From: Candidatus Kapaibacterium sp.
GTDB lineage: Bacteria; Bacteroidota; Ignavibacteria; Kapaibacteriales; Kapaibacteriaceae
DNA: 64,000 bases
Direction of reading: 5' to 3'
NCBI GenBank assembly: GCA_038202665.1
Contig: JBBRES010000001.1
Coordinates: forward strand, 13,255-77,254
The position numbers and the translations under genes were made by a program. The notes beneath the pieces were generated by a model. That model was not told where the DNA came from, did not search any database, and saw only the letters and a list, made by a program, of their open reading frames with translations. This document shows, one piece after another, positions 9,211 through 58,335 of this stretch (positions within the stretch are counted from its first letter, which is position 1; each line of letters begins with the position of its first letter).

Positions 9211-10404
9211 ATGCATCAACTCGTACGACGGTCACTCCTCGGCATCTGTTTCCTCTTCGCCTGCACGGCTCTCCATGCGATTCCGCAATTCTCGCTGATT
9301 AGTGGGAACCGTTGTTCTGGTTGCCACGTGAATGCGCAGGGATCGGGTTTGCGCACAAACCTCGGTTGGTATTCGTACATGGATGTGAGCATGATTCCAC
9401 GCGAGGGGAGCTTCCTGAGCGGATTGTATAAGGGCGATGAATCGAATCAGTTTCTTGACGACAAGCTCACGCTAGGCATTGACGTGCGCGTACAGAACAC
9501 GAGATCGTTTTACGATTCCGCCGCACCGCGCACCACATTCCCTATGCAGGCCAACCTCTATGCCTCCTATGAATTCGCAAAGGAATTCATGGTGGAGGGG
9601 TCGTTCAACTTCGCAGCCTTGCGCAAGGCACCGAACTCCACAGATGTAGTGCGCTATCCGGGGCAACGCGCCGGCACCTTCAGTGCATACTTCAAGCCGA
9701 GTGATTCTCTCCCAATGCTTCGCGTTGGCTTCTTCCGTCCAGCAATCGGACTCCGATGGGACGACCACACGGCATTCACGAATTCCTACGTAACGGGATC
9801 GTCACGTCAAGCGCTTGTAGCACCAATGTGGGCAGAGGTTGGAGCAGAGATCAGTTATGAATCACTGAAGTGGCTTACGATTCAGGCTGGTGTGTTCGGT
9901 TCCTCTGGTTTGTCTGAGCTCAAGTTCAGCGACGGAAAAAATCTGTATGCGGCCTTCTCTGGGAATGCCCCAACCTACACCGCACGAATCATGGTGTGGC
10001 CGCGGGCCTTCGACGACAAGATCAACATGTTCTTTGGCGCATCGGGCTTAGTGAACTACAACCTTGGGATGGTGAATGCGTGGGCTGGCGTAGGCCTCAC
10101 GGATTGGCTGGCACTGCAGGCCGAGTTCATGCATCTCGATCGCGTAGGTGTGCTTCAGGCCAATAACATCACCGCCGAACTCATGGTACAGGTATGGTCT
10201 CCACTACTTCCCTACGTGCGTTTTGAACATGGTGAAACACGTCGTGCTCAAGTGACAGATCTAGCATCGGTAAACAGTATCATCCTTGGCGCACAACTCT
10301 TTCCTATCCCGTACGTCGAGATTCGCCCTGAGTATCGCATTTGGGACACCGCACTTCCGGGCTATACATCACGTTGGAACGTACAGCTCCACATCTTCTA
10401 TTGA
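9211..10404 (+). CDS. Cyc2-like fused monoheme cytochrome-porin (outer-membrane beta-barrel with N-terminal CXXCH)
   Basis: A signal peptide (..CTALHA) is followed 13 residues later by CSGCH. The remainder is rich in amphipathic beta strands and ends in a terminal aromatic (..HIFY), as is typical of outer-membrane barrels. At 397 aa it fits the short Cyc2 cluster. Confidence 0.5.
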   Translation: MHQLVRRSLLGICFLFACTALHAIPQFSLISGNRCSGCHVNAQGSGLRTNLGWYSYMDVSMIPREGSFLSGLYKGDESNQFLDDKLTLGIDVRVQNTRSFYDSAAPRTTFPMQANLYASYEFAKEFMVEGSFNFAALRKAPNSTDVVRYPGQRAGTFSAYFKPSDSLPMLRVGFFRPAIGLRWDDHTAFTNSYVTGSSRQALVAPMWAEVGAEISYESLKWLTIQAGVFGSSGLSELKFSDGKNLYAAFSGNAPTYTARIMVWPRAFDDKINMFFGASGLVNYNLGMVNAWAGVGLTDWLALQAEFMHLDRVGVLQANNITAELMVQVWSPLLPYVRFEHGETRRAQVTDLASVNSIILGAQLFPIPYVEIRPEYRIWDTALPGYTSRWNVQLHIFY

Positions 10405-15962: not shown

Positions 15963-17219
15963 ATGGCTCGTCTTATTATGAACGTACTTCTAGCCATCAC
16001 CGGTAGTATTTCGGCATACAAGACGCCGTGGCTTGTGCGCGACCTCCGTCGCGCTGGTCACACGGTGCGCATTGTGATGACGGAATCCGCGACGCAGTTC
16101 GTAGCGCCATTGGCGCTTGAAAGTGTGTCGATGCAGCCCGTGATTGTGAATGCGTTCGACCCATCCATCCAAGATCGTGGGTCGTGGCATGTGCACCTCG
16201 CTCGGTGGGCCAACGTCATGTTGATCGCACCGTGCACTGCATCCACACTCGCCCGTCTTGCAAACGGTTTGTGCGACTCTGCTGTGATGACCGTGGCTTG
16301 CTCTCTTCCGGCATCAACACCACTGTTAGTGGCCCCGGCAATGGACACAGACATGTGGCATCACGCGTCTGTACAACGCAACATCAACCGTATTCAACAG
16401 GATGGCATCATCGTCATCGCACCCGAAGTAGGCGAGCTCGCGTCAGGGCTGCAAGGGGCAGGGCGATTGGCAGAGCTTGATACGATTGTGCAGACCGTTG
16501 CACGCTTTGAGACTGCAAGCACATCACGTCAACCACTACCGTCAACAACCCAACCAACCGGCATCGCGGGCAAGCGCCTGGTGATCACGGCGGGCCCTAC
16601 ACACGAGGCCATCGACGACGTGCGCTACATTGCCAATCGCTCCACAGGAACCATGGGATTTGCTCTCGCAGAAGCTGCACGCGATCGTGGCGCCATCGTC
16701 ACTTTGATTGCCGGACCTGTTTCTGTGTCAACTCCACTTGGTGTAGAACGCATCGATGTGACGAGTGCACAAGAGATGTTTGAACGCACCATGGAGCACG
16801 CGGACTACGACGTGGCAATCTGCGCCGCGGCCGTAGCCGACTATACACCAGTGGAGCGCGTTGTTGGAAAGATCAAGAAGGACCCGCTCGCATCAACATC
16901 GGAGTTGGTACTCTCTCTTCGGCAAACGCAAGACATTCTGGCAACGCTTGGCGAACGAAAACAACAACAGCAAATCCTCGTTGGCTTTGCGCTCGAGAGC
17001 ACAGATCTGATCAACTATGCGATCTCAAAACTCGAGCGCAAGCACGCAGACATGATCGTTGCGAATCTCGCTGGCGGCGAGCGCAGTGGATTCGGAACGG
17101 CCGACAACACGATCACCCTCATCACACGAACAGCATCACCGGAGTCGTTTCCACCAATGTCCAAACATGCGTGCGCAAACATCATCCTTGATGCGATTGA
17201 ACGACTACTTCCTTCTTAA
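15963..17219 (+). CDS. coaBC: bifunctional phosphopantothenoylcysteine decarboxylase / phosphopantothenate-cysteine ligase
   Basis: N-terminal flavoprotein domain (LLAITGSISAYKTPWLVRDL) and C-terminal CoaB domain (KRLVITAGPTHEAIDDVRYIANRSTG). Confidence 0.9.
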   Translation: MARLIMNVLLAITGSISAYKTPWLVRDLRRAGHTVRIVMTESATQFVAPLALESVSMQPVIVNAFDPSIQDRGSWHVHLARWANVMLIAPCTASTLARLANGLCDSAVMTVACSLPASTPLLVAPAMDTDMWHHASVQRNINRIQQDGIIVIAPEVGELASGLQGAGRLAELDTIVQTVARFETASTSRQPLPSTTQPTGIAGKRLVITAGPTHEAIDDVRYIANRSTGTMGFALAEAARDRGAIVTLIAGPVSVSTPLGVERIDVTSAQEMFERTMEHADYDVAICAAAVADYTPVERVVGKIKKDPLASTSELVLSLRQTQDILATLGERKQQQQILVGFALESTDLINYAISKLERKHADMIVANLAGGERSGFGTADNTITLITRTASPESFPPMSKHACANIILDAIERLLPS

Positions 17220-20682: not shown

Positions 20683-21914
20683 TGATCCGCGCCTTCCTCC
20701 TTTCCGCCTTCCTGTGTGCAACCTCTATTACAGCCATGGCGCAGCAGCCAACGGAGTTTCTTACACAGGGCAACGACGCCTATCAAAAGAACGAGTATAA
20801 GAAAGCCATCGAGCTGTACACGAGCGCTATCAGTGGCTCTCCGTCGCTTACACAAGCGTATTACAATCGTGGCCTTGCCTACATGCAGTCGAAGCAAAGC
20901 GCCAATGCCTTGCGCGACTTTAGCAAAGTGATTGAGCTTGATCCTCGGTTTAAAGACGCGTATCTGAATCGAAGCTTCATCAACATCGTAGAGCATCGCG
21001 TCACCGACGCCGTGCCAGATCTGACGGCGTACCTAAAGATCGATGGACTCAATGCAACGGCATGGTTTAATCGAGGTCAGGCCTATCAGGAAATGGGAAA
21101 GAACGATTCTGCGATGGCAGACTTTACGAAAGCGATTTCGATAGACACAACACTGATGAGTGCCTACTTGGCGCGCGGTGTGAACTATGCGCGTGAAGGC
21201 AAAACAGATCTCGCAATCAAAGACCTTGAGCGCGCCACAAGGCTCAATCCGGAAGAACCACTTGGTTGGCTTAATCTCGGACAGGCCTACTTCTCTGCAG
21301 GACATGGCGACTCTGCCGGTACTGCTTGGAGAAAGTTCATTACGATGGAAAAGGGAACAGCACGTTCGAAGCAAGTAGATACGATGCTCATCGAAATGTG
21401 CCAGGACACACGCGGCGTTGTAGACAAAGCGTTTCAAGACACGTCCAAGCTCGTATCTATCAAACTGCCACAACACTGGTTCACCAATACGCAAGACGAT
21501 GGCAAGGTCTTCAATTTCTTCGTGTCGAAGGAACGCATAGATAAGCCACAAGACATGTACACAAGCGGCGTAGCTATTCATATGCTTCGAGATGTGGCCA
21601 AGAACTACAACCTGAAGGACCCTACTCCAACGTCAATCGTAACGTTCTGGACGGCCTTCCTTGACGACGCGAGCAAAGAGTACGATGTGTACACCGTGAG
21701 CAAGACCGAGCCCATCAAGGTGGGCGCGTGGACGGGAAGCATTCGCGACATTACTCTGCGCATTAAAAAGGAGTATTACACGGTGCACAAGTGGGAGGCC
21801 GTTGTGGCCAACCGCGACAACGTACTCTGGGTAACAGCGGAATGTCCGGCAGATCTATGGCCCGCATTCCGTGATCGTTTTCGCAAAGCCATCGAAACCA
21901 TGCGTCTTCCGTAG
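20679..21914 (+). CDS. secreted TPR-repeat protein
   Basis: Signal peptide, TPR repeats in the N-terminal half and an uncharacterised C-terminal half. Confidence 0.6.
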   Translation: MMIRAFLLSAFLCATSITAMAQQPTEFLTQGNDAYQKNEYKKAIELYTSAISGSPSLTQAYYNRGLAYMQSKQSANALRDFSKVIELDPRFKDAYLNRSFINIVEHRVTDAVPDLTAYLKIDGLNATAWFNRGQAYQEMGKNDSAMADFTKAISIDTTLMSAYLARGVNYAREGKTDLAIKDLERATRLNPEEPLGWLNLGQAYFSAGHGDSAGTAWRKFITMEKGTARSKQVDTMLIEMCQDTRGVVDKAFQDTSKLVSIKLPQHWFTNTQDDGKVFNFFVSKERIDKPQDMYTSGVAIHMLRDVAKNYNLKDPTPTSIVTFWTAFLDDASKEYDVYTVSKTEPIKVGAWTGSIRDITLRIKKEYYTVHKWEAVVANRDNVLWVTAECPADLWPAFRDRFRKAIETMRLP

Positions 21915-26248: not shown

Positions 26249-27625
26249 ATGTTCTTCAAACAGATCTACGAACCAGGCCTCGCCCACGCATCGTACATGG
26301 TGGGATGTCAGAAAACCGGAACCGTCATGGTGATCGACGCCAAGCGTGACGTCGACACGTACATCGAGATCGCACAGCAGGAACGACTGCAGATCACGCA
26401 CCTTACCGAAACGCACATTCATGCAGACTTCTTAAGCGGAACGCGCGAACTCGCCGCGCTCACGGGCGCAGAAATGCTGCTGAGTGATGAGGGCGGCGAG
26501 GAGTGGCGCTACGAGTTTCCGCATACTGGACTCAGGAATGGCGACATCTTTATGGTGGGTAACATTAAGGTGGAGGTTGTTCACACACCAGGCCATACAC
26601 CTGAGCACATCTCCTTCTTGGTAACCGACACTCCGGCCATTGCGGACGTACCGATTATGATGTTCACAGGCGACTTCGTCTTTGTTGGCGATGTTGGACG
26701 TCCGGATCTTCTTGAAAAGGCGGCAGGGTACAAGGGCACGATGGAGATTGGGGCACGACAACTTTGGACTTCCCTTGCCGCCTTCCGCGCCTTACCAGAC
26801 CATATTCAGGTTCATCCTGCACATGGTGCCGGATCTGCTTGTGGCAAGGCTCTAGGTGCGATTCCTTCGTCGACGGTGGGGTATGAAAAACTAGTAAACT
26901 GGGCATTGCGCCACACCAACGAAGAAGAGTTCGTGCAAGAGCTTCTGTCGGGTCAGCCAGAGCCTCCCTACTACTTTGCCCACATGAAACGCTTAAACAA
27001 AGTTGATCGTCCGCTCCTTCCAAACGTACCCGAGCTCAAACGACTTTCGCTTGCCGATATCGACGATGCTCTAGCGAACAACCAAAACATCGTAGACACG
27101 CGGTCGAAGGTGTCGTTCGCAGGTGGACACATTCCGAACACAATCAACATCCAAGACAACAAGGCCTTCTCTACATGGGCCGGCTGGATGCTCGACTACA
27201 ATGAGCCCTTCACCGTAATCGCTCCTCCTGAACGCACAAACGAGATCATGCGGAAGCTTATGCGCATCGGACTTGATTCTGTTCGCGGCGTTATCGAAGA
27301 CGTCACCATGTGGACGGATGCCGGCAGAGACCTGGCTACTGTTCCACAAATCGACCTTGACGAACTCAAGCAACGCTACGATCATGAGAACGTATTCGTA
27401 GTCGATGTACGCGGTGCAACGGAACATGCGGAAGGTCATATCCCAGGCGCAACAAACATTCATGCCGGCTACCTTCCGCAGCACTACGCAGAAATTCCGA
27501 GAGACAAAGTCGTCGTAATCTCCTGTCAATCCGGCGACCGCTCCAGCATCGCAACATCCATGATGCTTCGCGCCGGATTCACCAACGTGGTAAACTTCCC
27601 GTTGGGGTTTGGGGGATGGAAGTGA
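26249..27625 (+). CDS. persulfide dioxygenase-rhodanese fusion (MBL-fold + two rhodanese domains, CstB-like)
   Basis: MBL-fold motifs (THIHADF, HTPGHTPEH), a non-catalytic rhodanese domain and a catalytic rhodanese with a CQSGDRS loop. The stop TGA is the first triplet of repeat array A. Confidence 0.8.
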   Translation: MFFKQIYEPGLAHASYMVGCQKTGTVMVIDAKRDVDTYIEIAQQERLQITHLTETHIHADFLSGTRELAALTGAEMLLSDEGGEEWRYEFPHTGLRNGDIFMVGNIKVEVVHTPGHTPEHISFLVTDTPAIADVPIMMFTGDFVFVGDVGRPDLLEKAAGYKGTMEIGARQLWTSLAAFRALPDHIQVHPAHGAGSACGKALGAIPSSTVGYEKLVNWALRHTNEEEFVQELLSGQPEPPYYFAHMKRLNKVDRPLLPNVPELKRLSLADIDDALANNQNIVDTRSKVSFAGGHIPNTINIQDNKAFSTWAGWMLDYNEPFTVIAPPERTNEIMRKLMRIGLDSVRGVIEDVTMWTDAGRDLATVPQIDLDELKQRYDHENVFVVDVRGATEHAEGHIPGATNIHAGYLPQHYAEIPRDKVVVISCQSGDRSSIATSMMLRAGFTNVVNFPLGFGGWK

Positions 27626-27940
27626 GTAAAGTGAGAAGTGACGAGTGAGAAGTGAGAAGTCAAGTGAGAAGTGACGAGTGAGAAGTTCGTAAAGTGACAA
27701 GTGACGAGTGAGAAGTGAGAAGTCAAGTGAGAAGTGAGAAGTGAGAAGTGAGAAGTTCGTAAAGTGACAAGTGACGAGTGAGAAGTTCGTAAAGTGACAA
27801 GTGACGAGTGAGAAGTGAGAAGTCAAGTGAGAAGTGACAAGTGAGAAGTGGAATGTGACAGTCTGCCGGGAGGCTGCCGGGAGGCTGCCGGGAGGCTGCC
27901 GGGAGGCTGCCGGGAAGGGTGAGGAGTAAGAAGTGAGAAG
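27621..27940 (+). repeat. composite satellite array A: about 30 GTGAGAA-type heptamers, then 5x CTGCCGGGAGG, then 2-3 heptamers
   Basis: Tandem periodicity read directly. Unit variants are GTGAGAA, GTGACGA, GTGACAA, GTCAA and TTCGTAAA. The array fills the entire spacer between the PDO stop and the S51 peptidase GTG start. Confidence 0.95.
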
Positions 27941-28649
27941 CAAAAACATCATAGCGCTGGGTGGGGGCGGGTTTTCCATGGAACCGGAGAATACCGCTCT
28001 AGACCTTTACGTTTTGCGAGCTGCTGAAGCTGCAAGGCCGAAGGTGTGTTTTCTTCCGCACGCGGCGAGTGACGAGGCTCGATACTGTCTCAACTTCTTT
28101 ACGGCCTTCGCTCGGTACGACTGTACCCCGTCTTCGTTGTCGTTGTTCACAACGCCACCGAAAGAGAATATGGAATCGTTCTTGCATGAGCAAGACGTGA
28201 TCTATGTTGGAGGAGGCAATACGAAGTCGATGCTTGCAGTGTGGCGAGAGTGGGAGCTTGATCGGATCCTTCGTTCATGCTACGAGCATGGCGTGGTGCT
28301 GGCTGGCGTAAGCGCTGGTGCGAATTGTTGGTTCGATGCCTACATCACGGATTCAGCATCACAAGAGCTCGGCGCGCTCACGAACGGACTCGGACTTATC
28401 GGCGGAACATTTTGTCCGCATTACAATGGCGAAGAACAACGTAGACCAACGTTTCACCAACTCGTTGCAAACGGCACCGTGCCCGATGGCATCGCCTGCG
28501 ACGACAGCGTTGCGGCACATTTCAAGGATGGACAGCTACACGTAGCTGTTGCATCGAATCCGTACGCACAAGCATTTCACGTCCGCCGGACAGCCACGGG
28601 CGTTACAGAAGAATCCATATCCACTCATCATCTCGACACCACTTCATGA
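27933..28649 (+). CDS. peptidase S51 family (dipeptidase E / cyanophycinase-like)
   Basis: Conserved N-terminus IIALGGGGF and central GVSAGANCW nucleophile elbow. The GTG start lies within the last heptamers of array A. Confidence 0.7.
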   Translation: MRSKNIIALGGGGFSMEPENTALDLYVLRAAEAARPKVCFLPHAASDEARYCLNFFTAFARYDCTPSSLSLFTTPPKENMESFLHEQDVIYVGGGNTKSMLAVWREWELDRILRSCYEHGVVLAGVSAGANCWFDAYITDSASQELGALTNGLGLIGGTFCPHYNGEEQRRPTFHQLVANGTVPDGIACDDSVAAHFKDGQLHVAVASNPYAQAFHVRRTATGVTEESISTHHLDTTS

Positions 28650-28939
28650 GCACAGAGATCACACCAGAAGCCCTCAAAGCACGCATCGCAGCAGGCGAAA
28701 ACCTCGTCTTGCTCGACGTCCGCAGACCCGATGAACATGCAGAAAAAAATATTCCAGGATCGATCCTAATCACGTTGGATGAACTCGAAGACCGACTCGA
28801 CGAACTCGAGCCCTACCGCAACACAGAACTCATCGTCTACTGCAGAAGTGGCAACCGCAGCGGTCAAGCTTGTATGTTTCTCGACATGATTGGATTCACG
28901 GCAACCGTGAATTTGAAGGGTGGCATGTTGGCATGGTAG
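28646..28939 (+). CDS. single-domain rhodanese (sulfurtransferase)
   Basis: Active-site loop YCRSGNRSGQA. Confidence 0.8.
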   Translation: MSTEITPEALKARIAAGENLVLLDVRRPDEHAEKNIPGSILITLDELEDRLDELEPYRNTELIVYCRSGNRSGQACMFLDMIGFTATVNLKGGMLAW

Positions 28940-29724
28940 GCGTAGAGTTCATCGCCTATATCGTTGCCGTTCTTATCGGCATTTCACTTGGACTTATCGG
29001 CGCGGGCGGAGCGATTGTTGCTGTACCGCTCTTTGTCTATCTCCTTCAAATCCCTCCGACAAGAGCAAGCGGATACGCGTTGTTCGTTGTTGCCGTCTCA
29101 TCCATCTACGCCGTCATTCAACACCATCTTGCACGTCGCATCGACTGGCGAGCCGTGATCGCCTTTGGTATGTCTACAACGATCTCTGTGTTCTTGGTAC
29201 GTGCCTTCGTGATGCCTTTCCTCCCTGCCACCTTCACACTTGGACCTATCTCTGTGGAGCGAGATCATGCGCTGATGATCGCCTTTGCTGGGGTATTGTT
29301 TGCAGCGGCGATTGGCATGCTCAGAAGTACAGAGGAGCGCAGCACGGACACGCCGCCGCACGTCATGCGTCTCACGTTATTCGGTGTTGTGATTGGTGTG
29401 ATCAGTGGATTTCTTGGCGTTGGCGGCGGCTTTCTGATGACGCCCGCGCTCGTGCTGTGGGGTAGACTTGACATGAAGCGCGCTGTCGCAACATCGCTGT
29501 TTCTTATTTGCGTGAACTCTGCGGTTGGTGTTGCTGCGGATATGCGCGCCGGACTCGACTACGATTGGCCGTTCGTCCTCACATTCACGGGTCTCACAAC
29601 CGTCGGCATCATCATCGGCACCGTGCTTGGCAAACGCGTTCATGCAACACATTTGCGAAAAGGATTCGGTTGGTTCGTACTGCTAATAGGCACTGGCGTA
29701 TTACTCCGCGAGCTCTTCTTCTAA
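28933..29724 (+). CDS. TauE/SafE family sulfite/anion exporter
   Basis: Two internal repeats with GxGGG motifs (LIGAGGAIVAVP and FLGVGGGFLMTP). The ATG overlaps the rhodanese stop. Confidence 0.75.
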   Translation: MVGVEFIAYIVAVLIGISLGLIGAGGAIVAVPLFVYLLQIPPTRASGYALFVVAVSSIYAVIQHHLARRIDWRAVIAFGMSTTISVFLVRAFVMPFLPATFTLGPISVERDHALMIAFAGVLFAAAIGMLRSTEERSTDTPPHVMRLTLFGVVIGVISGFLGVGGGFLMTPALVLWGRLDMKRAVATSLFLICVNSAVGVAADMRAGLDYDWPFVLTFTGLTTVGIIIGTVLGKRVHATHLRKGFGWFVLLIGTGVLLRELFF

Positions 29725-29734
29725 TTCTACGATT

Positions 29735-30125
29735 TCGTTATTGTACACTTTCGCAGTCGTACCCGTTCGTCGCACCTCGCTATCGTTGTCCTATACTTTC
29801 GTCGCACTTCGCTTTCGTCGTACTTCGCTTTCGTAATACTCCCCTTTCGTAGAACTTCGTTTTCGTAGCACTTCGCTTTCGTCGTACTTCGCTTTCGTCG
29901 TACTTCGCTTTCGCAGAACTTCGCTTTCGTAGCACTTCGCTTTCGTAAAACTTCGTTTCGTCGTACTTCGCTTTCGTCGTACTTCGCTTTCGTCGTACTT
30001 CGCTTTCGCAGAACTTCGTTTTCGTAGCACTTCGTTTTCGTAATACTTCGTTATCGTAATACCTCGCTTTCGAAGCACTTCGTTTTCGAAACACTTCGTC
30101 TACGAAGTCCTTCGTTCTTGCAGTC
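29735..30125. repeat. satellite array B: about 24 tandem copies of a 16-mer, CTTCGCTTTCGTNGNA
   Basis: Perfect 16-bp periodicity over about 390 bp between convergent tauE-like and der 3' ends. Distal copies degrade into short palindromes (ACTTCGTCTACGAAGT). Confidence 0.95.
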
Positions 30126-30169
30126 CCTTGCTTTTTAGCCGAATGCTTTCGCTGCCGTACGTTTTCGCA

Positions 30170-31492
30170 TCATTCGTCTGCGAAGCGGTCCTTGTTTTTC
30201 GCACGGAACAAGAAGCTCACGGGCACACCTTCAAGTTCGAAGTGCTTACGAAGCTGACGCTCAATGAAGCGCTTATAGGCTTCCGGGATGAGTTCCGGGT
30301 GATTCGCAAAGAACGCGAACAGCGGTGGTGCAGATTTCACTTGCGTGATATAGTTAATGCGTAGGTCGCGGCCCTTCACGCTTGGCGGTGGTACACGCTC
30401 TAGATCTGGCAGAACAAGGTCGTTCAGCTTACTTGTGCTTACGCGCATCGTGCGCCGCGCTTGGATTTCCTTTGCCATTTCAAGAAGTCTCGTGACGCGC
30501 TGCTTTGTGAGTGCGCTCACGTACACCACTGGTGCGTAGTCCACTGTTGGCAGCTCTTCCTTGATCTTGCGAGTGAACTCTTCAGATGTATGAGTGTCTT
30601 TTTCTACAAGATCCCACTTGTTCACGGCGATGATAATACCGCGACGTGATTCCACTACTTGTGCGATGATACGCTTGTCTTGTGCTTCTAGACCTTGCGC
30701 TGCATCAACCACTACAATGGCAACATCGCACCGGTCAATCGCGCGCGCCGTACGCATCGTGCTATACAGTTCGACTTGTTCTTTGATCTGGCTACGTCTG
30801 CGAAGTCCAGCCGTATCAATCAGCACCATTTCTTCGCCATAGAACTTCACCGTGCTATCGATTGCATCGCGTGTTGTGCCAGCAATTGGCGTCACGATCA
30901 TGCGCTCTTTACCAAGCAACACATTGGTGATCGAGCTCTTTCCAACATTCGGTCTGCCAACGATGGCGATCTTCAATCGGTCATCTTCAACCTCGTGCTC
31001 TGCCGGCAGCGCGCTCACGATGGCATCAAGGAAGTCGCCGGTACTTCTTCCATTCAATGCGGAGATCGGGAACGGATCGCCAAGTCCAAGCGCATAGAAT
31101 TCGGATGCATTCAGGTCGGTTTTTGCATTGTCGCACTTATTCACGACTAAGGTCACTGGCTTACTCGATGTGCGAAGCATGGTGGCGATCGCCTCGTCGA
31201 TAGGTGTCATTCCGTCCACCCCATCCACGACCATGATAATGGCATCCGCTTCCTCAACGGCCATCATTGCCTGCTCACGAATGGCCTTATCGAACATTTC
31301 CATGCTCTTGGGTACGATACCTCCGGTATCGACCAATTGGAACGTATGTCCATTCCACTCGCCAACGGCATAGAGCCGATCGCGCGTCACACCGGGCTCC
31401 GACTCCACGATCGCGTGTCGTTCTTCGATGATGCGGTTGAACAATGTTGATTTGCCGACGTTAGGTCGGCCTACGATAGCTACGAGACTCAT
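30170..31492 (-). CDS. der: ribosome-biogenesis GTPase Der (EngA), two GTPase domains + KH-like
   Basis: Two G domains (GRPNVGKSTLFN and GRPNVGKSSITN). The start was taken at MSLVAIVGRPNVGKS. The upstream ORF extension translates repeat C. Confidence 0.9.
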   Translation of the reverse strand: MSLVAIVGRPNVGKSTLFNRIIEERHAIVESEPGVTRDRLYAVGEWNGHTFQLVDTGGIVPKSMEMFDKAIREQAMMAVEEADAIIMVVDGVDGMTPIDEAIATMLRTSSKPVTLVVNKCDNAKTDLNASEFYALGLGDPFPISALNGRSTGDFLDAIVSALPAEHEVEDDRLKIAIVGRPNVGKSSITNVLLGKERMIVTPIAGTTRDAIDSTVKFYGEEMVLIDTAGLRRRSQIKEQVELYSTMRTARAIDRCDVAIVVVDAAQGLEAQDKRIIAQVVESRRGIIIAVNKWDLVEKDTHTSEEFTRKIKEELPTVDYAPVVYVSALTKQRVTRLLEMAKEIQARRTMRVSTSKLNDLVLPDLERVPPPSVKGRDLRINYITQVKSAPPLFAFFANHPELIPEAYKRFIERQLRKHFELEGVPVSFLFRAKNKDRFADE

Positions 31493-31540
31493 ATGCGAAG
31501 TTACGGCTAAAGAGGAGAGGAAGGTGAAAAGGGGGTAGTC

Positions 31541-31727
31541 AAGTGAGAAGTGAGAAGTAAGCAAAGTGAGAAGTGACAAGTGAGAAGTAAGAAGTAAGTA
31601 AAGTGAGAAGTGACAAGTGAGGAGTGAGAAGTCAAGTGAGAGGTGAGAAGTGAGAAGTGAGTAAAGTGACAAGTGAGAAGTGAGAAGTGAGGAGTGAGTA
31701 AAGCGAGAAGAGACAAGTGAGGAGTGG
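31541..31727 (+). repeat. satellite array C: about 27 GTGAGAA-type heptamers
   Basis: Same unit family as array A. It lies in the divergent spacer between der (-) and the four-helix-bundle gene (+). Confidence 0.95.
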
Positions 31728-31814
31728 CGCCCTTTTAAGAGCTATGTCACGTTTGGGGGTCATCTAGGCCCCAGGTGGTGGAGGCACCAATCACTATGAA
31801 ACAAGCATAATCAT

Positions 31815-32192
31815 ATGAAAAGCGAGCAGGAATCGCCCCTTTTCGTCAAATCTGGGCAGTTAGCGGACCGAATACGGAATATTGCCCATGCAAAGTGGTG
31901 GGTTGACACCGACCGCGACATTCTGCGGCAAGTTCTCCGTTCTGGGACTTCAGTTGGCGCTAACTACCGAGAGGCCTGGTTTGCTGAAAGCAAAAACGAC
32001 TTCGCACACAAACTCAAGATTGTCCGAAAAGAGGCGAACGAGACGCTCTATTGGCTTGAACTTCTATCACAAACTCCGAGGTCACACATGTGTACCGACC
32101 TTGAATGCGCCCAACAACTCGCGCGCGAGATCATCTACTTGACCACCGCGTCAATCACTTCGTTAGGCCGTAAGCCTCCAAAGCCAACCTAG
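31815..32192 (+). CDS. four-helix-bundle protein (23S rRNA intervening-sequence protein family)
   Basis: Family pattern ..GANYREAWFAESKNDFAHKLKIVRKEANETLYWLELL. It is bracketed by inverted arrays C and D. Confidence 0.75.
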   Translation: MKSEQESPLFVKSGQLADRIRNIAHAKWWVDTDRDILRQVLRSGTSVGANYREAWFAESKNDFAHKLKIVRKEANETLYWLELLSQTPRSHMCTDLECAQQLAREIIYLTTASITSLGRKPPKPT

Positions 32193-32295
32193 CCCATACA
32201 CTGCAGCCAAACACGAAAAACATCGGCTATGCTCGACGCCTACGTGCGTCCGATAACTCCCGAAGTACTATACACCAAACCAACTATCGCACTTT

Positions 32296-32632
32296 CCCGG
32301 CAGCTTCCCGGCAGCCTCCCGGCAGACTGTCACATTCCACTCGTCACTTCTCACTTCTCACTTGACTTCTCACTTCTCACTCGTCACTTGTCACTTTACC
32401 CACTTCTCACTCGTCACTTGTCACTTTACCCACTTCTCACTCGTCACTTGTCACTTTACCCACTTCTCACTTGTCACTTGACTTCTCACTTCTCACTCGT
32501 CACTTGTCACTTTACCCACTTCTCACTTGTCACTTTACCCACTTCTCACTCGTCACTTCTCACTTGACTTCTCACTTCTCACTCGTCACTTGTCACTTTA
32601 CCCACTTCTCACTTTACTCACTTCTCATTCTT
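32296..32632 (-). repeat. satellite array D: 3x (C)CCCGGCAG followed by about 42 TTCTCAC-type heptamers with a 28-bp higher-order unit
   Basis: It is the reverse complement of array A. The higher-order unit CACTTCTCACTCGTCACTTGTCACTTTAC(C) repeats about 7 times. The array runs into the stop codon of the 32618..33526 gene. Confidence 0.95.
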
Positions 32633-33526
32633 CTGCTTCGCATGCTGCAGTCTCTCCATCAGCACAAAGTCATAGCTCACGAGCATCGTAGAGGCTGAGC
32701 CATACATGCCGATGGTGACGGCTTCTTTGTCGCCAACATTCCAGTAGACATATTCGGATTCGACAACGGCGTGTGGACCGTAGTGCGAGATGAGGTCGTC
32801 GACAAAAACTTTTGCCGCCTGTTCGCGTTGCGTTTTGTCGCGAAACGAGTAGTAGAGCTCCGACTTATATGCACGGTTTTGCGCGTCGATGTGAATGAGG
32901 AGAGAGTCGGCCGTGAAGCCATTGCGACTGTAGTTCTTGAAGGCGAGCACCGATTCTTCGATGCGCTTCTTTACGCAGCCAGAGTCCTTAGCGTAGTCTT
33001 CCACATCCTCGCGTGCAGTCTTCAGCGGCAAGGCGAGAGGCCACCTGCGCACCGTTGTGGAATCATTGAACACAAAATTGTCGGGTGCGAATCGGACGGT
33101 CATCAAATCGTCTTCCGTCACAACGCCAATACTTACGAGATCACCATCATATCCTTCCCACCCTGCAAAGTCCTCGCCAAACCGTGATGGCGCTCCGAGC
33201 TTCGTTGTTAGGATGTCGGTGACACGATCTAAGGTCTTTGCGCCTTCGTAGGGAATGTAGAGTGTGATGGCCGACATTGCATTGTTGCTGTAGTGCACGT
33301 ACACAGAGTCGGTCTTCATACCTTCCCACGTATACCCCGTTGCTTGCAACACTTGCTCCGCGCCCCAATCCATCATGCCGTCTCGCACCGTGAGTCCTTG
33401 CTTCGCGAGCACCACGCGCGCATTATCTGCGGGTGCCATGTAAGGCACTTGCGTTGGCCACGGATATTGGGCCATCAAGGAACACGTAGAAAGTAGGAAG
33501 GCGGCAAGGAGGAGCGGACGGGACAT
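32618..33526 (-). CDS. hypothetical secreted protein
   Basis: Signal peptide (LLAAFLLSTCSLMAQ). The last about 6 codons (..KQKNEK*) are encoded by repeat-like sequence. Confidence 0.45.
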   Translation of the reverse strand: MSRPLLLAAFLLSTCSLMAQYPWPTQVPYMAPADNARVVLAKQGLTVRDGMMDWGAEQVLQATGYTWEGMKTDSVYVHYSNNAMSAITLYIPYEGAKTLDRVTDILTTKLGAPSRFGEDFAGWEGYDGDLVSIGVVTEDDLMTVRFAPDNFVFNDSTTVRRWPLALPLKTAREDVEDYAKDSGCVKKRIEESVLAFKNYSRNGFTADSLLIHIDAQNRAYKSELYYSFRDKTQREQAAKVFVDDLISHYGPHAVVESEYVYWNVGDKEAVTIGMYGSASTMLVSYDFVLMERLQHAKQKNEK

Positions 33527-33568
33527 GGTAGATCCAACAATGAGTTGATAGCACCGATCATTTGCCGG

Positions 33569-34543
33569 TCACAACGCCTTGATGAGTTCGGCGACGATTG
33601 CCGATGGCGTCATGCCTTCTGCTTCTGCATTAAAGTTTGTGACGATGCGATGCCTGAGCACGCTTGCTGCCACTGCATTTACATCGTCGATCGATGGCGT
33701 GAATCTTCCTGAAAGTGCAGCGCGTGACTTTGCTCCCAAGACCAAGTACTGGGATGCACGCGGACCTGCTCCGTAGCTCAAGAAGTCGCGCACGATCTTT
33801 GCCGATGCGGCGCTTGGGCGGGTATTGCGCACCAACGTTACGGCATGTTGGATCACATTGTCGGCAACCGGTACTCTGCGCACGAGATTTTGATAAGCAA
33901 TGATGTCTTGAGCGCCGATAACGCGCGCGAGAGTAGGCGTACGCTCGACGGTTGTGCTTCGCACCACTTCCATCTCTTCTTCCATACTCGGATAGTCCAA
34001 CCACAGATTGAACATGAAACGATCCAACTGCGCTTCCGGAAGTGGATACGTCCCCTCTTGCTCGATAGGATTCTGTGTTGCAAGAACAAAGAATGGCTCT
34101 TCGAGTTGATACGTAGTGCCGGCCGCAGTAACGCTATGCTCTTGCATCGCTTCGAGTAAGGCCGCCTGTGTTTTCGGAGGGGTACGATTGATCTCGTCTG
34201 CCAAAACGATGTTGGCGAACACTGGACCCTTAACAAAACGGAAAGATTTATGTCCGGTCGTGATGTTGTCTTCGATTACTTCCGTTCCCGTGATATCACC
34301 CGGCATAAGATCTGGCGTGAACTGAATGCGGGAAAACGAAAGGTCCATGGTTTGTGCAAGCGTGCGAATGAGCAAGGTCTTTGCCAAGCCAGGCACACCA
34401 ACAAGGAGACAGTGCCCGCGTGCAAAGAGCGCGATCAACAATTGATCGATGACATCCTCTTGACCGACGATGACCTTTTGTATCTCCGTCTTGACATTCT
34501 TAATTGCCGACGATGCTTGTTGTACGAGTTCTACGTCATTCAT
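33569..34543 (-). CDS. MoxR-family AAA+ ATPase
   Basis: Walker A LLVGVPGLAKT, Walker B ILADEINR, and MoxR family length and pattern. Confidence 0.85.
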   Translation of the reverse strand: MNDVELVQQASSAIKNVKTEIQKVIVGQEDVIDQLLIALFARGHCLLVGVPGLAKTLLIRTLAQTMDLSFSRIQFTPDLMPGDITGTEVIEDNITTGHKSFRFVKGPVFANIVLADEINRTPPKTQAALLEAMQEHSVTAAGTTYQLEEPFFVLATQNPIEQEGTYPLPEAQLDRFMFNLWLDYPSMEEEMEVVRSTTVERTPTLARVIGAQDIIAYQNLVRRVPVADNVIQHAVTLVRNTRPSAASAKIVRDFLSYGAGPRASQYLVLGAKSRAALSGRFTPSIDDVNAVAASVLRHRIVTNFNAEAEGMTPSAIVAELIKAL

Positions 34544-57277: not shown

Positions 57278-58003
57278 CATGTCACGTGCTGTCGAAGTTG
57301 GCCTTGAGTGATTTCTGGTCTTGATAACCTTGATCATCGTTGCATAATCGTTTTTATTCTGATTGGCGTTCTCACTGGAGAACGATGCATTTGCTTCATC
57401 AATCATGTCGCTCCTTCCCAGATAGCTACCAATTGCTGATTGTTGTCCGCACGGAGCGTGAGAAAACGTAGGTGCCTAACCACAACATTTGGCATGGTCG
57501 TCCTTTTCCGTCGAGCCGTGCATCACGACCATCAATCCTACCTCGGCACTGTAAGCATACCATCAAATCCATCACCTATGAGTTGATGTGTTGAGTTAGT
57601 TTCGCACCATTACCACTAGGAGGTGGAATGATGTGACAGAGAGATACGATGGTTACGTGTTCGAGCAGTGGAAGCGTAGTGGAATTGGCAAGGAGCCTTA
57701 TGCGAGGTAGCACGGCGGTGCTGTAAGATTTGCAATGTGCCGCCTTTCAATGCTACATGCCACCACACAAACATCAAAGCGCATAACTGGCTTCGATACG
57801 CCATGTTGAATGTCAACTCCACTGCGCCCGCGGACTATCACGCACTCTTGCCAAACGCTATCGACCCTGCACTTCTGGCGCAACGTCCTAGGTGTACGTG
57901 CACTACTGTTTACTCAACTGGCCGCGTGTTTCGGGGTTGACTTGGTACTCGTGCGTTCTCCCACCTGCCGATAACTGCAGGGGTACTGCATTGGAATAGG
58001 TGA

Positions 58004-58190
58004 GGCTCACTTCTCACTTCTCACTTCTCACTTCTCACTTCTCACTTAACTTGCCACTACTTTCCTTCCCGGCAGCTGCCGGGAAGCTTCCCGGCAGAAA
58101 TTCATTTTTCTTCTCACTTCTCACTTCTCACTTAACTTGTCACTTGTCACTCGTCACTTCTCACTTTAACTCGTCACTTCTCACTTTAAC
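58004..58190 (-). repeat. satellite array E: TTCTCAC x5, palindromic CCCGGCAG/CTGCCGGG core x3, then TTCTCAC-type heptamers
   Basis: CCCGGCAGCTGCCGGGAAGCTTCCCGGCAG contains two overlapping perfect palindromes (16 bp and 22 bp). It is flanked by the same heptamers as arrays A, C and D. Confidence 0.95.
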
Positions 58191-58335
58191 TTTCCTCTTG
58201 CCTTCCCTCCCTACCATCCTTCACGATCTTCGCACGCGGCTCTTTCGGGATCCTTTTCGCGTTGTGAGTCCAGGATATGTAGAGGCCAATGAAGTAGCGG
58301 CGAAGTCGGGTGATGTAGTGGTGTTATGTAGGGCA

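Follow-up and report, generated by a model that had tools for sequence, protein, structure and literature searches.

A small four-helix-bundle gene between opposed heptamer arrays in Candidatus Kapaibacterium: a probable extra-ribosomal counterpart of the rRNA intervening sequences

Among the systems described so far, those closest to the element presented here are the intervening sequences (IVSs) of rRNA genes that carry an open reading frame (ORF) for an S23p protein. In Coxiella burnetii, this ORF is enclosed by inverted repeats, which pair into a 28-bp stem that RNase III cuts, and two to three tandem heptamers (GACAGAT), the number of which varies between strains, are found before the start codon (PMC4990558). 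The origin of IVSs is unexplained, and descent from mobile elements has long been suspected (PMC4990558). In addition, 23S_rRNA_IVP genes have been observed inserted inside cas operons (PMC3936711). Here, we describe a gene of this kind in a stretch of 64,000 nucleotides of a Candidatus Kapaibacterium sp. genome (contig JBBRES010000001.1, positions 13,255 to 77,254; hereafter, the window, in whose coordinates all positions are given unless a related locus, designated by an L number, is named). The gene lies in a block, at 31541-32631, in which it is bracketed by two opposed arrays of tandem heptamers.

We consider that this block is probably (at a rough estimate, 0.6) an extra-ribosomal and greatly expanded IVS-type cassette, that is, a selected gene of the S23p/TIGR02436 family placed between opposed arrays of one short unit. 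Its closest precedent is the rRNA intervening sequence and not the MITE (a miniature transposable element with inverted repeats).

The left arm of the bracket, array C (31541-31726, + strand, 186 bp), contains 25.7 copies of a period-7 unit according to Tandem Repeats Finder (TRF), which reads AAGTGAG/GTGAGAA on the + strand and is accompanied by the variants GTGACAA, GTGAGGA, GTAAGAA, GTCAAG and GTAAAG. Towards the gene, this array is purine-rich and presents TGA in all three frames, and it stops 88 bp before the ATG. These 88 bp form a unique 5′ leader (31727-31814, + strand) with a motif, TGTCACGTT, that is conserved in the orthologous loci L127 and L128. The gene itself (31815-32192, + strand; 125 codons) is followed by a unique 3′ trailer of 101 bp (32193-32293, + strand), homologous to L128 727-826. 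Beginning 101 bp past the stop codon, TRF detects 2.9 copies of an 11-mer satellite, TTCCCGGCAGC (the “CCCGGCAG core”, 32294-32325), and the sequence then shows an 18-bp junction, actgtcacattccactcg (32326-32343), which connects this core to the right arm. The latter, array D (32344-32631, - strand, 288 bp), comprises around 40 heptamers, again with period 7 by TRF, of the TTCTCAC type (TCACTTC) on the + strand and of the GTGAGAA type on the - strand, and is organised in a higher-order unit of 30 nt, CACTTCTCACTCGTCACTTGTCACTTTACC. Sequence and TRF thus bear out all the coordinates of the sequence-only reading, an earlier interpretation made from the DNA alone, which had placed the gene between opposed heptamer arrays.

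The segment enclosed by arrays C and D measures 567 bp, and the inverted repeats that they form extend up to 159 nt at 75% complementarity, or reach 90% over 98 nt. The abundance of the unit is far from random: GTGAGAAGTGA, with one mismatch allowed, is matched 67 times in the window, compared with 1.8 expected, and none of 100 shuffles reaches this number. All 67 matches are confined to four arrays, with 34 of them in array C.

With respect to the protein, its score is 69.8 bits (cut-off 24) against NCBIfam TIGR02436, “four helix bundle protein”, and 53.7 bits (cut-off 33.8) against Pfam PF05635, “23S rRNA-intervening sequence protein”. The closest solved structure is PDB 2RLD (E = 5e-16), and 2GSC/XCC0516 is also matched with a profile search. 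Both structures were deposited as five chains and, judging from these sequence matches, the 125-aa protein is a homolog of such pentameric ring proteins. Its residues R42, S46, N50 and E53 correspond to the RxxxSxxxNxxE part of the published family motif (PMC3936711), while the leading G of the GxxR portion is Q39 here; of the motif residues, only R42 (invariant) and S46 (at least 90%) are among the conserved columns of the alignment of relatives (A1). When the gene is compared with those of L127 and L128, the ratio of nonsynonymous to synonymous divergence (dN/dS) is 0.03-0.055, with dS values of 0.8-2.7, and strong purifying selection acts on the gene in both of the orientations described below. 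Three terminator-like sites were observed at the locus, all of them within the range expected by chance. A role as a defence system was also considered and discarded, as PADLOC gave no match.

The association of this gene with opposed heptamers extends well beyond the window. The sample of relatives consisted of 80 metagenomic loci, the best matches to the 125-aa protein, and TRF was applied to the 200-nt flanks of the genes, with other genes in the same loci as controls. Arrays were found upstream of 64 of the 71 genes that had usable flanks, downstream of 59 of 71 and on both sides of 55 of 71 (77%), compared with 10 of 91 controls (11%) having arrays on both sides (Fisher, 1.4e-18). The period was 7 in 109 of the 123 arrays of relatives (89%), whereas the periods of control arrays were scattered. 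In 43 of the 55 genes with arrays on both sides, the flanking units were reverse complements of each other and, similarly, inverted 10-mers common to both flanks were present at 43 of 70 genes and at none of 84 controls (6e-20). After clustering at 80% identity, an array was present at 64 of 67 genes, and complementary arms were observed in 39, built from 32 different units (for instance, TTAGTGA, AATGACG, TTAATGG or AAAGTCG). As the sample forms 75 clusters at this identity and displays 32 different units, it does not represent one recently spread clone. Consequently, inverted heptamer arrays are the usual bracket of this gene clade, in which the unit sequence changes from lineage to lineage and the two arms usually remain reverse-complementary. 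The arms of relatives typically have 4-5 units (median aligned length, 32 nt), and those of the window, with 26 and 40 units, are therefore extreme.

Individual loci illustrate the same pattern, and answer in the affirmative whether other copies of the gene are flanked by arrays. At a second Kapabacteria locus, L129 (56% identity), the upstream units are AGTGACA/AGTTACG and those found downstream are CACTCGT. Among the three loci with both a GTGAGAA array and the gene, two share the layout of the window: in Bizionia hallyeonensis (L090, Flavobacteriaceae), 17 GTGA(A/G)AA units reach the start codon and three TTTTCAC units lie past the stop codon, while, in a metagenome-assembled genome (MAG) of Omnitrophota (L087), the units are AAGTGAG/AAGTTAG before the start and TTCCCAC beyond the stop. 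Arrays also flank the gene in L211 (an Anaerolineae protein) and in L214 (a Methylococcales symbiont), where the cassette is directly upstream of hsdR. By contrast, an Akkermansia relative has direct, not inverted, arrays.

Some of these loci present further peculiarities. In L087 (1-440), the region upstream of the gene is made of tandem units of around 180 bp, each with TTCCCAC-type heptamers, a centre, GATTACCTATGAGGGATTGAAAC..., that resembles the end of a CRISPR repeat, and AAGTGAG-type heptamers. There is a tandem partial duplication of the array and the 5′ part of the gene in L209 (2400-3200), and the gene is split into two ORFs in L170 (1907-2281). Two paralogs are found 1.4 kb apart in L162 (2890-5008), one with the 9-mer AAATGATGG and the other with a GATAGAT-type 7-mer, both in direct arrangement. 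Finally, the relative in L214 (1501-1866) is separated by 5 nt, from stop to next ATG, from the type I restriction gene hsdR, that of L174 (193-1066) is immediately downstream of the transfer-messenger RNA (tmRNA) gene, and that of L213 (53-1567) lies beside a phage-type integrase.

The genomic context of the relatives is also informative. In 36 of 44 relatives, the gene runs in the same direction as its two neighbours, and the arrays abut its start and stop codons, the latter often lying inside a unit. On the sense strand of the gene, the upstream flank is purine-richer than the downstream one in 62 of 73 cases (p = 2e-11). Of 146 flanks, 102 have each of the three frames closed when read inward, and 64 when read outward; in the window, GTGAGAA carries TGA, and the period of 7 leads to the closure of the three frames. 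No rRNA context was observed in any of the 80 related loci, where Rfam detects only tRNA, tmRNA and Flavo-1, a few of the loci adjoining tRNA or tmRNA genes. Rfam likewise finds no rRNA or other RNA family in the window.

The history of the locus can be followed in several relatives. The insertion site is bounded on the left by der (EngA GTPase according to Pfam, 30170-31492, - strand) and on the right by a 302-aa hypothetical gene (32618-33526, - strand), which is followed by a MoxR ATPase gene. Among named homologs of Der, the best come from Candidatus Kapabacteria (Bacteroidota). Array D provides the 302-aa gene with its final codons and its TGA stop, and the ortholog of this gene in L002 has a different end. 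Nucleotide identities of der give the relationship ((window, L128), L127), L002. A contig from a soil-metagenome MAG, L001 (GCA_965610785.1), encodes identical proteins and is essentially identical to window positions 27644-33726; the only differences are in copy number, within a third array (array A, see below), within array D, which is one 30-nt unit shorter in L001, and within a 16-mer satellite. The layout is also maintained in L127, where the gene lies between an array and an inverse array, beyond which come a unique piece of 360 bp and another inverse array. In L002 (89% amino-acid identity in Der), by contrast, the order is MoxR, a 303-aa gene, a spacer of 80 bp and der, with no four-helix-bundle gene and no tandem repeats across 21 kb. 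L002 is an empty site: the cassette is missing at the same position in a related species. The sequence-only reading had proposed that gene and arrays form a cassette-like block and are not juxtaposed by coincidence, and the orthologous loci agree with it, as those with the gene (L001, L127 and L128) always have arrays, while the one without the gene has only its short spacer. The gene has been kept at one locus through three species (dS 0.8-2.7).

The comparison with L128 reveals a rearrangement. There, the gene, its leader and its trailer match the + strand of the window (by blastn, L128 323-826 corresponds to 31789-32293), while the adjacent der matches the - strand. Given this opposite relative strand, the gene segment has been inverted between the two arrays, with a breakpoint at the outer end of the 3′ trailer. 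The junction in L128 crosses an array of 31 bp, which is shorter than the assembler k-mer implied by the contig name (k141), and we therefore do not consider it a repeat-induced misjoin. L128 keeps the purine-rich arm upstream of the gene, as an inversion between reverse-complementary arms leaves it, and its flipped state is the co-directional configuration common among relatives. Thus, across lineages (window and L128), the segment exists in both orientations between inverted repeats. The arms also resemble each other within a species: the shared fraction of 12-mers between array C and array D in reverse complement amounts to 0.47 for the window and 0.44 for L127, compared with 0.15 between the C arrays of the window and L127, and both arms carry species-specific variant units (GTCAAG and GTAAAG in the window, GTTAAG and GTTACG in L127). 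These observations indicate concerted evolution, with ongoing exchange of DNA between the arrays. In summary, the arms recombine with each other at the DNA level, as revealed by the flip of the segment, the homogenisation within species and the changes in copy number between strains. In L128 (149-363), around 10 copies of a 21-nt unit, GAGCAAAATCATATGAAAAAC, tandemly duplicate the start-codon region of the gene, creating an in-frame run of ATG codons and a possible N-terminal heptapeptide repeat.

In addition to the bracket, the 64-kb window, which has a single copy of the gene, contains two solo arrays. Array A (27619-27940, + strand) has around 33 GTGAGAA units, a junction, 4.8 copies of the 11-mer CTGCCGGGAGG (27863-27915) and a short heptamer tail. 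The junction, ggaatgtgacagt (27850-27862), joins the array to its core, where five copies of the 11-mer are seen as ctgccgggagg repeats, and is the reverse complement of the actgtcacattccactcg junction. Array D, taken together with its core and junction (actgtcacattcc), reproduces exactly, in reverse complement, the layout of array A, and 76% of the 12-mers of array A are shared with the reverse complement of array D. Array E (58006-58193, - strand), situated upstream of a sensor kinase gene, is composed of six TTCTCAC units, a palindromic core, TTCCCGGCAGCTGCCGGGAAGCTTCCCGGCAG (58066-58097), and around 11 TTCTCAC-type units. A profile search in six frames did not find remnants of the four-helix-bundle gene beside array A, array E or the 16-mer satellite. 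Consequently, the arrays are not private to the gene in this genome, a further point on which the sequence-only reading is not supported.

The 11-mer satellite (CTGCCGGGAGG/TTCCCGGCAGC) is joined to three of the four heptamer arrays, always through the junction ggaatgtgacagt: it is found in the three cores located above and at L001 6075-6120. It is species-specific, being missing from the orthologous cassettes of L127 and L128. In array E and in L001, one of its units is inverted, giving a 20-nt perfect palindrome, TTCCCGGCAGCTGCCGGGAA. The synteny between the window and L001 is lost exactly inside array A (window 27619-27940; L001 5861-6140), upstream of which the window has a Lactamase_B-rhodanese gene, as do L127 and L002, whereas L001 has gap, pgk, rhomboid and gcpE. 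The break may reflect a true rearrangement or, alternatively, a chimera joined through the satellite; in both cases, at least one more array locus must exist in the genome, next to gap. On its other side, array A is adjacent to an S51 peptidase gene (27979-28649) that is missing from L002, where Lactamase_B-rhodanese and rhodanese genes are contiguous (L002 12139-12432); L127 has the peptidase gene, and only around four AGTGACA units at the site of array A (L127 6561-6587).

Similar arrays are widespread, as a scan of species-representative genomes with GTGAGAAGTGAGAAGTGA gave at least 120 stretches, distributed over many phyla. Inverted pairs of GTGAGAA-type arrays that enclose other cargo are frequent in Acidobacteriota, Gemmatimonadota and Bacteroidota (L012 145-250; L033 4431-4553; L035 5925-6160; L056 632-880; L078 5877-6092; L088 4570-4761; L017 3339-4060). 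This cargo may be nothing at all, resulting in a pure hairpin, a terminator-like hairpin just past a tRNA-like 3′ end, a palindrome, GTCATCCTGAGCGAAGCGAAGGATCC, resembling repetitive extragenic palindromes, a conserved centre of around 130 nt found at two loci of one Gemmatimonadales MAG, or a gene for a membrane protein. Such inverted pairs may be ORF-less counterparts of the cassette. In a more distant Kapabacteria genome, L005 (Der 77% identity), spacers hold different short satellites (16382-16524, 9940-9992 and 20754-20781), among them an inverted pair of 8-mers, 7.5 copies of GTTAGTCG and 3.5 of ACTAACCG, 55 nt apart and with no gene between them.

How could a cassette of this type be tolerated among other genes? 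Because of their complementarity, the arms might pair in any transcript that crosses the cassette, in either direction, forming a duplex of around 160 bp. In the predicted fold of the window, 162 of the 186 bases of array C pair with array D, and the cassette has a minimum free energy (MFE) of -427 kcal/mol when the sense strand is folded and of -496 kcal/mol for the antisense strand, which corresponds to a read-through RNA from the 302-aa gene into der. When array D is reversed as a folding control, 145 pairs are still formed, with an MFE of -342 instead of -427 kcal/mol; this is a poor control, because purine and pyrimidine arrays still pair, and only the difference in energy is informative. 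In the relatives, the median flank-flank duplex is -35.5 kcal/mol, compared with about -22 to -24 in shuffled, reversed and cross-locus controls. By analogy with the rRNA IVSs, we infer that the arms pair in vivo and that RNase III cleaves them. The long stem would then be a substrate for this enzyme, a structural insulator, or both, and a stem that is processed or insulating would allow the insert to be tolerated inside transcription units. Moreover, purine-rich arrays that close all the frames inward would stop ribosomes entering from neighbouring genes.

Several observations weigh against this explanation of the block as an expanded IVS-type cassette. The processing by RNase III is taken from the IVSs purely by analogy. 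The mismatches between arms at 49 loci (150 transversions, 29 sense-G.U and 48 antisense-G.U) correspond to the random expectation; selection on the stem at the RNA level, sought as a G.U-compatible spectrum, was therefore rejected, there being no RNA-specific signature of it, and DNA-level exchange alone could keep the arms complementary. Around one fifth of the relatives with two arrays have non-complementary or direct ones (L162, L213 and L160), so that pairing is not obligatory. The gene is antisense to both neighbours in 3 of 44 relatives, and the window and L127 are arranged in this way; since it is nevertheless under purifying selection, it needs a promoter of its own, and no sigma-70 promoter was found at the gene in a scan that does not cover Bacteroidota-type promoters. 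As the 80 relatives are the best matches to the protein, the rule is shown for one clade and not for all PF05635. Finally, arrays also have a life of their own, existing without the gene, as arrays A and E do, and, among the matches listed, only 3 of 120 GTGAGAA-array loci carry it. We have consequently rejected a general cross-phyla link from the GTGAGAA array to the gene. The gene is nearly always accompanied by arrays and the arrays are mostly found without the gene; dependence therefore runs one way.

Other explanations have to be weighed against the IVS-type cassette. That a genome-wide heptamer satellite just happens to fill both spacers around an unrelated small gene would agree with the presence of the satellite at two other places of the window without the gene and with the many phyla in which GTGAGAA arrays mostly lack it. 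However, such a coincidence is highly improbable when 64 of 67 non-redundant relatives have arrays, when these are on both sides in 77% of relatives, as opposed to 11% of controls, and when gene and arrays are co-present or co-absent among orthologous loci. It seems rather unlikely, too, that the block is a non-autonomous element, MITE-like or composite, in which the arrays act as terminal inverted repeats (TIRs) and the cassette is moved by the protein that recognises them, either a transposase whose gene lies elsewhere or the four-helix-bundle protein. Such an element would fit the polymorphism in presence at the same site, the finding of both orientations, the location of family members between unrelated genes, often inside operons, and the old hypothesis, quoted in PMC4990558, of IVSs as remnants of mobile elements. 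Nevertheless, no transposase, integrase or recombinase was found among the called genes (Pfam labels) within 10 kb on each side in L001 and L127, and a comparison of L002 with the junctions in the window, L127 and L128 showed no target-site duplication, although the arrays abut neighbouring genes and could hide a short one. Furthermore, the terminal sequence is not conserved (32 unit types among 39 complementary pairs), unlike that of TIRs recognised by transposases, the gene has resided for long at one locus, and only one copy exists within 64 kb. With no such enzyme within 10 kb, with units that differ by lineage and with this long residence, the likeness to terminal inverted repeats drawn in the sequence-only reading is not supported, and none of the target-site duplications that it mentioned was seen. 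It had also suggested that the repeats could be a mobilising or recombinogenic part: the flip in L128 and the concerted arms uphold the recombinogenic character, while transposon-type mobilisation, with no transposase found within 10 kb, is not supported.

The same recombination between arms could be taken as the sign of a programmed invertible switch, in which exchange between arrays C and D flips the gene to turn it on and off or to alter the read-through into der. Inverted repeats of 186 and 288 bp around a 567-bp segment would be suitable for this purpose, the segment lies the other way round in L128, the sister lineage, and there agrees with the co-directional arrangement common among relatives, and the concerted evolution of the arms implies the exchange of sequence between them. 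Still, we regard a switch as quite improbable, because no site-specific recombinase is found among the called genes within 10 kb (L001 and L127), the arms are only 75-90% complementary, and those of most relatives are only around 30 nt long. In addition, the orientation is the same in the window, in L001 (same species) and in the more distant L127, so that flipping looks rare on an evolutionary time scale. Possible, if still unlikely, is that the arrays work as cis-acting sites by virtue of their tandem nature (sites bound by the pentameric four-helix-bundle protein, for autoregulation or RNA capture, or by a single-strand binder of the host, translation insulators, or re-initiation leaders with stops in all frames), their inversion being secondary. 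Several features point in this direction: a period of 7, not a multiple of 3, in 89% of the arrays, their contact with start and stop codons, often supplying the stop, their polarity in purine content and stop codons, and the existence of direct elements, including two L162 paralogs that use different units on one contig. Besides, forward TAACTGA arrays have been described just upstream of start codons elsewhere, where binding of Csp/S1 has been proposed (PMC4679880), and the random mismatch spectrum argues against selection on an RNA duplex. By contrast, a simple binding-site model does not predict that the two sides are reverse complements in 43 of 55 genes, and the unit does not track the similarity of the protein, as GTGAGAA-like units are found at 33-36% identity and different ones at 40-55%.

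A bolder version of the IVS-type cassette, which we think unlikely, would unite protein and arrays in one self-contained module, in which the pentamer recognises its own tandem units, in DNA or RNA, with one unit per binding site and both partners co-evolving, and the arrays are used to propagate, invert or process out the cassette. Co-evolution of protein and unit would explain why paralogs on one contig have different units. If such a module existed, it would represent a new and extremely abundant class of selfish or domesticated cassettes, of which the rRNA IVSs would be the special case noticed first, and the ORF-less inverted heptamer hairpins of many phyla would be its non-autonomous derivatives.

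The arrays also have practical consequences, since they break short-read assemblies and can misjoin contigs, generate spurious ORFs of the LLTSHFS type and alter the ends of neighbouring genes. In the window, long ORFs of this type appear at 31507-31716, 32229-32698 and 58000-58200, a public MAG annotation calls one of these array-derived ORFs as a 102-aa gene (L001 10415-10723), and the ORFs of der and the kinase are artificially lengthened by arrays in mechanical ORF lists. An unrelated 16-mer satellite, CTTTCGTAGTACTTCG, with around 18 copies (29796-30134), fills the spacer of the convergent TauE and der genes, and its copy number in the window differs from that in L001. At this site, L128 has another 16-mer, CGAAAGGCTACGGCTA, with more than six copies that run off the end of the contig, and L127 and L002 have no 16-mer satellite.

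Parts of this picture were already known, namely IVSs with an S23p ORF and inverted termini, the heptamers of Coxiella, and intergenic heptamer satellites with stops in all frames (PMC4679880). What is new is that, outside rRNA, reverse-complementary heptamer arrays of lineage-specific sequence almost always bracket the genes of this clade. Their arms can grow to hundreds of bases, become dispersed as solo arrays, invert the gene and undergo concerted evolution. Our literature search found no paper linking the gene family in general to flanking heptamer arrays, or stating this rule for the clade. The S23p/four-helix-bundle family is among the most widespread small protein families of no known function, and the IVSs that first revealed it have had an unexplained origin and mobility since the early 1990s. 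The reverse-complementary 7-nt bracket provides a diagnostic DNA signature for the family outside rRNA and connects dispersed accounts of heptamer satellites with one specific gene. The question of the IVSs also becomes experimentally concrete, in terms of arm pairing, RNase III cleavage, binding of the protein to the repeats, and inversion.

Avd, the accessory protein of diversity-generating retroelements, has been reported as a structural relative of the S23p four-helix-bundle pentamers. Like the 125-aa protein, it belongs to the small four-helix-bundle proteins, and its features include the formation of pentamers and work with nucleic acid; unlike it, the 125-aa gene has no reverse transcriptase and no template or variable repeat nearby, and Avd was not matched in the sequence search of the protein, in which only 2RLD and 2GSC were. 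With invertons and shufflons, the cassette shares a segment, flanked by inverted repeats, that lies in one orientation in some relatives and in the other elsewhere. However, it has no dedicated recombinase within 10 kb, its arms match imperfectly and greatly exceed the usual inverton repeats in length, and the two orientations are seen between lineages, with the window and L001 in agreement. As in MITEs, there is a short intergenic cassette with inverted ends, presence/absence polymorphism and the possibility of a long hairpin. Unlike MITEs, its ends are lineage-specific tandem arrays, it carries a conserved ORF under selection, and there was no target-site duplication visible in the window, L127 and L128, no partner transposase within 10 kb in L001 and L127, and no multi-copy near-identical family in the window.

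The 7-nt long simple sequence repeats (Mrazek et al. 2007), the short tandemly repeated repetitive sequences of cyanobacteria and the TAACTGA arrays of Beggiatoaceae, Cyanobacteria and Bacteroidetes (MacGregor 2015, PMC4679880) are likewise intergenic tandem heptamers, with stop codons in all three frames in the forward orientation, indels in 7-nt steps between strains, and no array at the corresponding spacer of close relatives. The arrays in these reports are single and are linked neither to a particular gene family nor to an inverted partner, whereas here a reverse-complementary pair surrounds one kind of gene. The S23p-ORF IVSs of Leptospira, Coxiella burnetii, Brucella and Xanthomonas (Ralph & McClelland 1993; Warrier et al. 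2016, PMC4990558) encode proteins of the same PF05635/TIGR02436 family. By definition, such IVSs reside in helix 9, 25 or 45 of the 23S rRNA and are transcribed within the pre-rRNA, whereas the cassette is flanked by der and a hypothetical gene, and rRNA is not the location of any of the 80 relatives. Instead of a 28-bp stem, its arms are whole arrays of 186 and 288 bp, with an 11-mer satellite in addition, and its gene, antisense to its neighbours, is under purifying selection, while the ORF of Coxiella is decaying. Even so, the cassette resembles the IVSs in having an ORF inside complementary termini from which a long stem could form, heptamers repeated in tandem directly upstream of the start codon, with a copy number that varies between strains, and, in most relatives, a sense insertion in a transcribed region.

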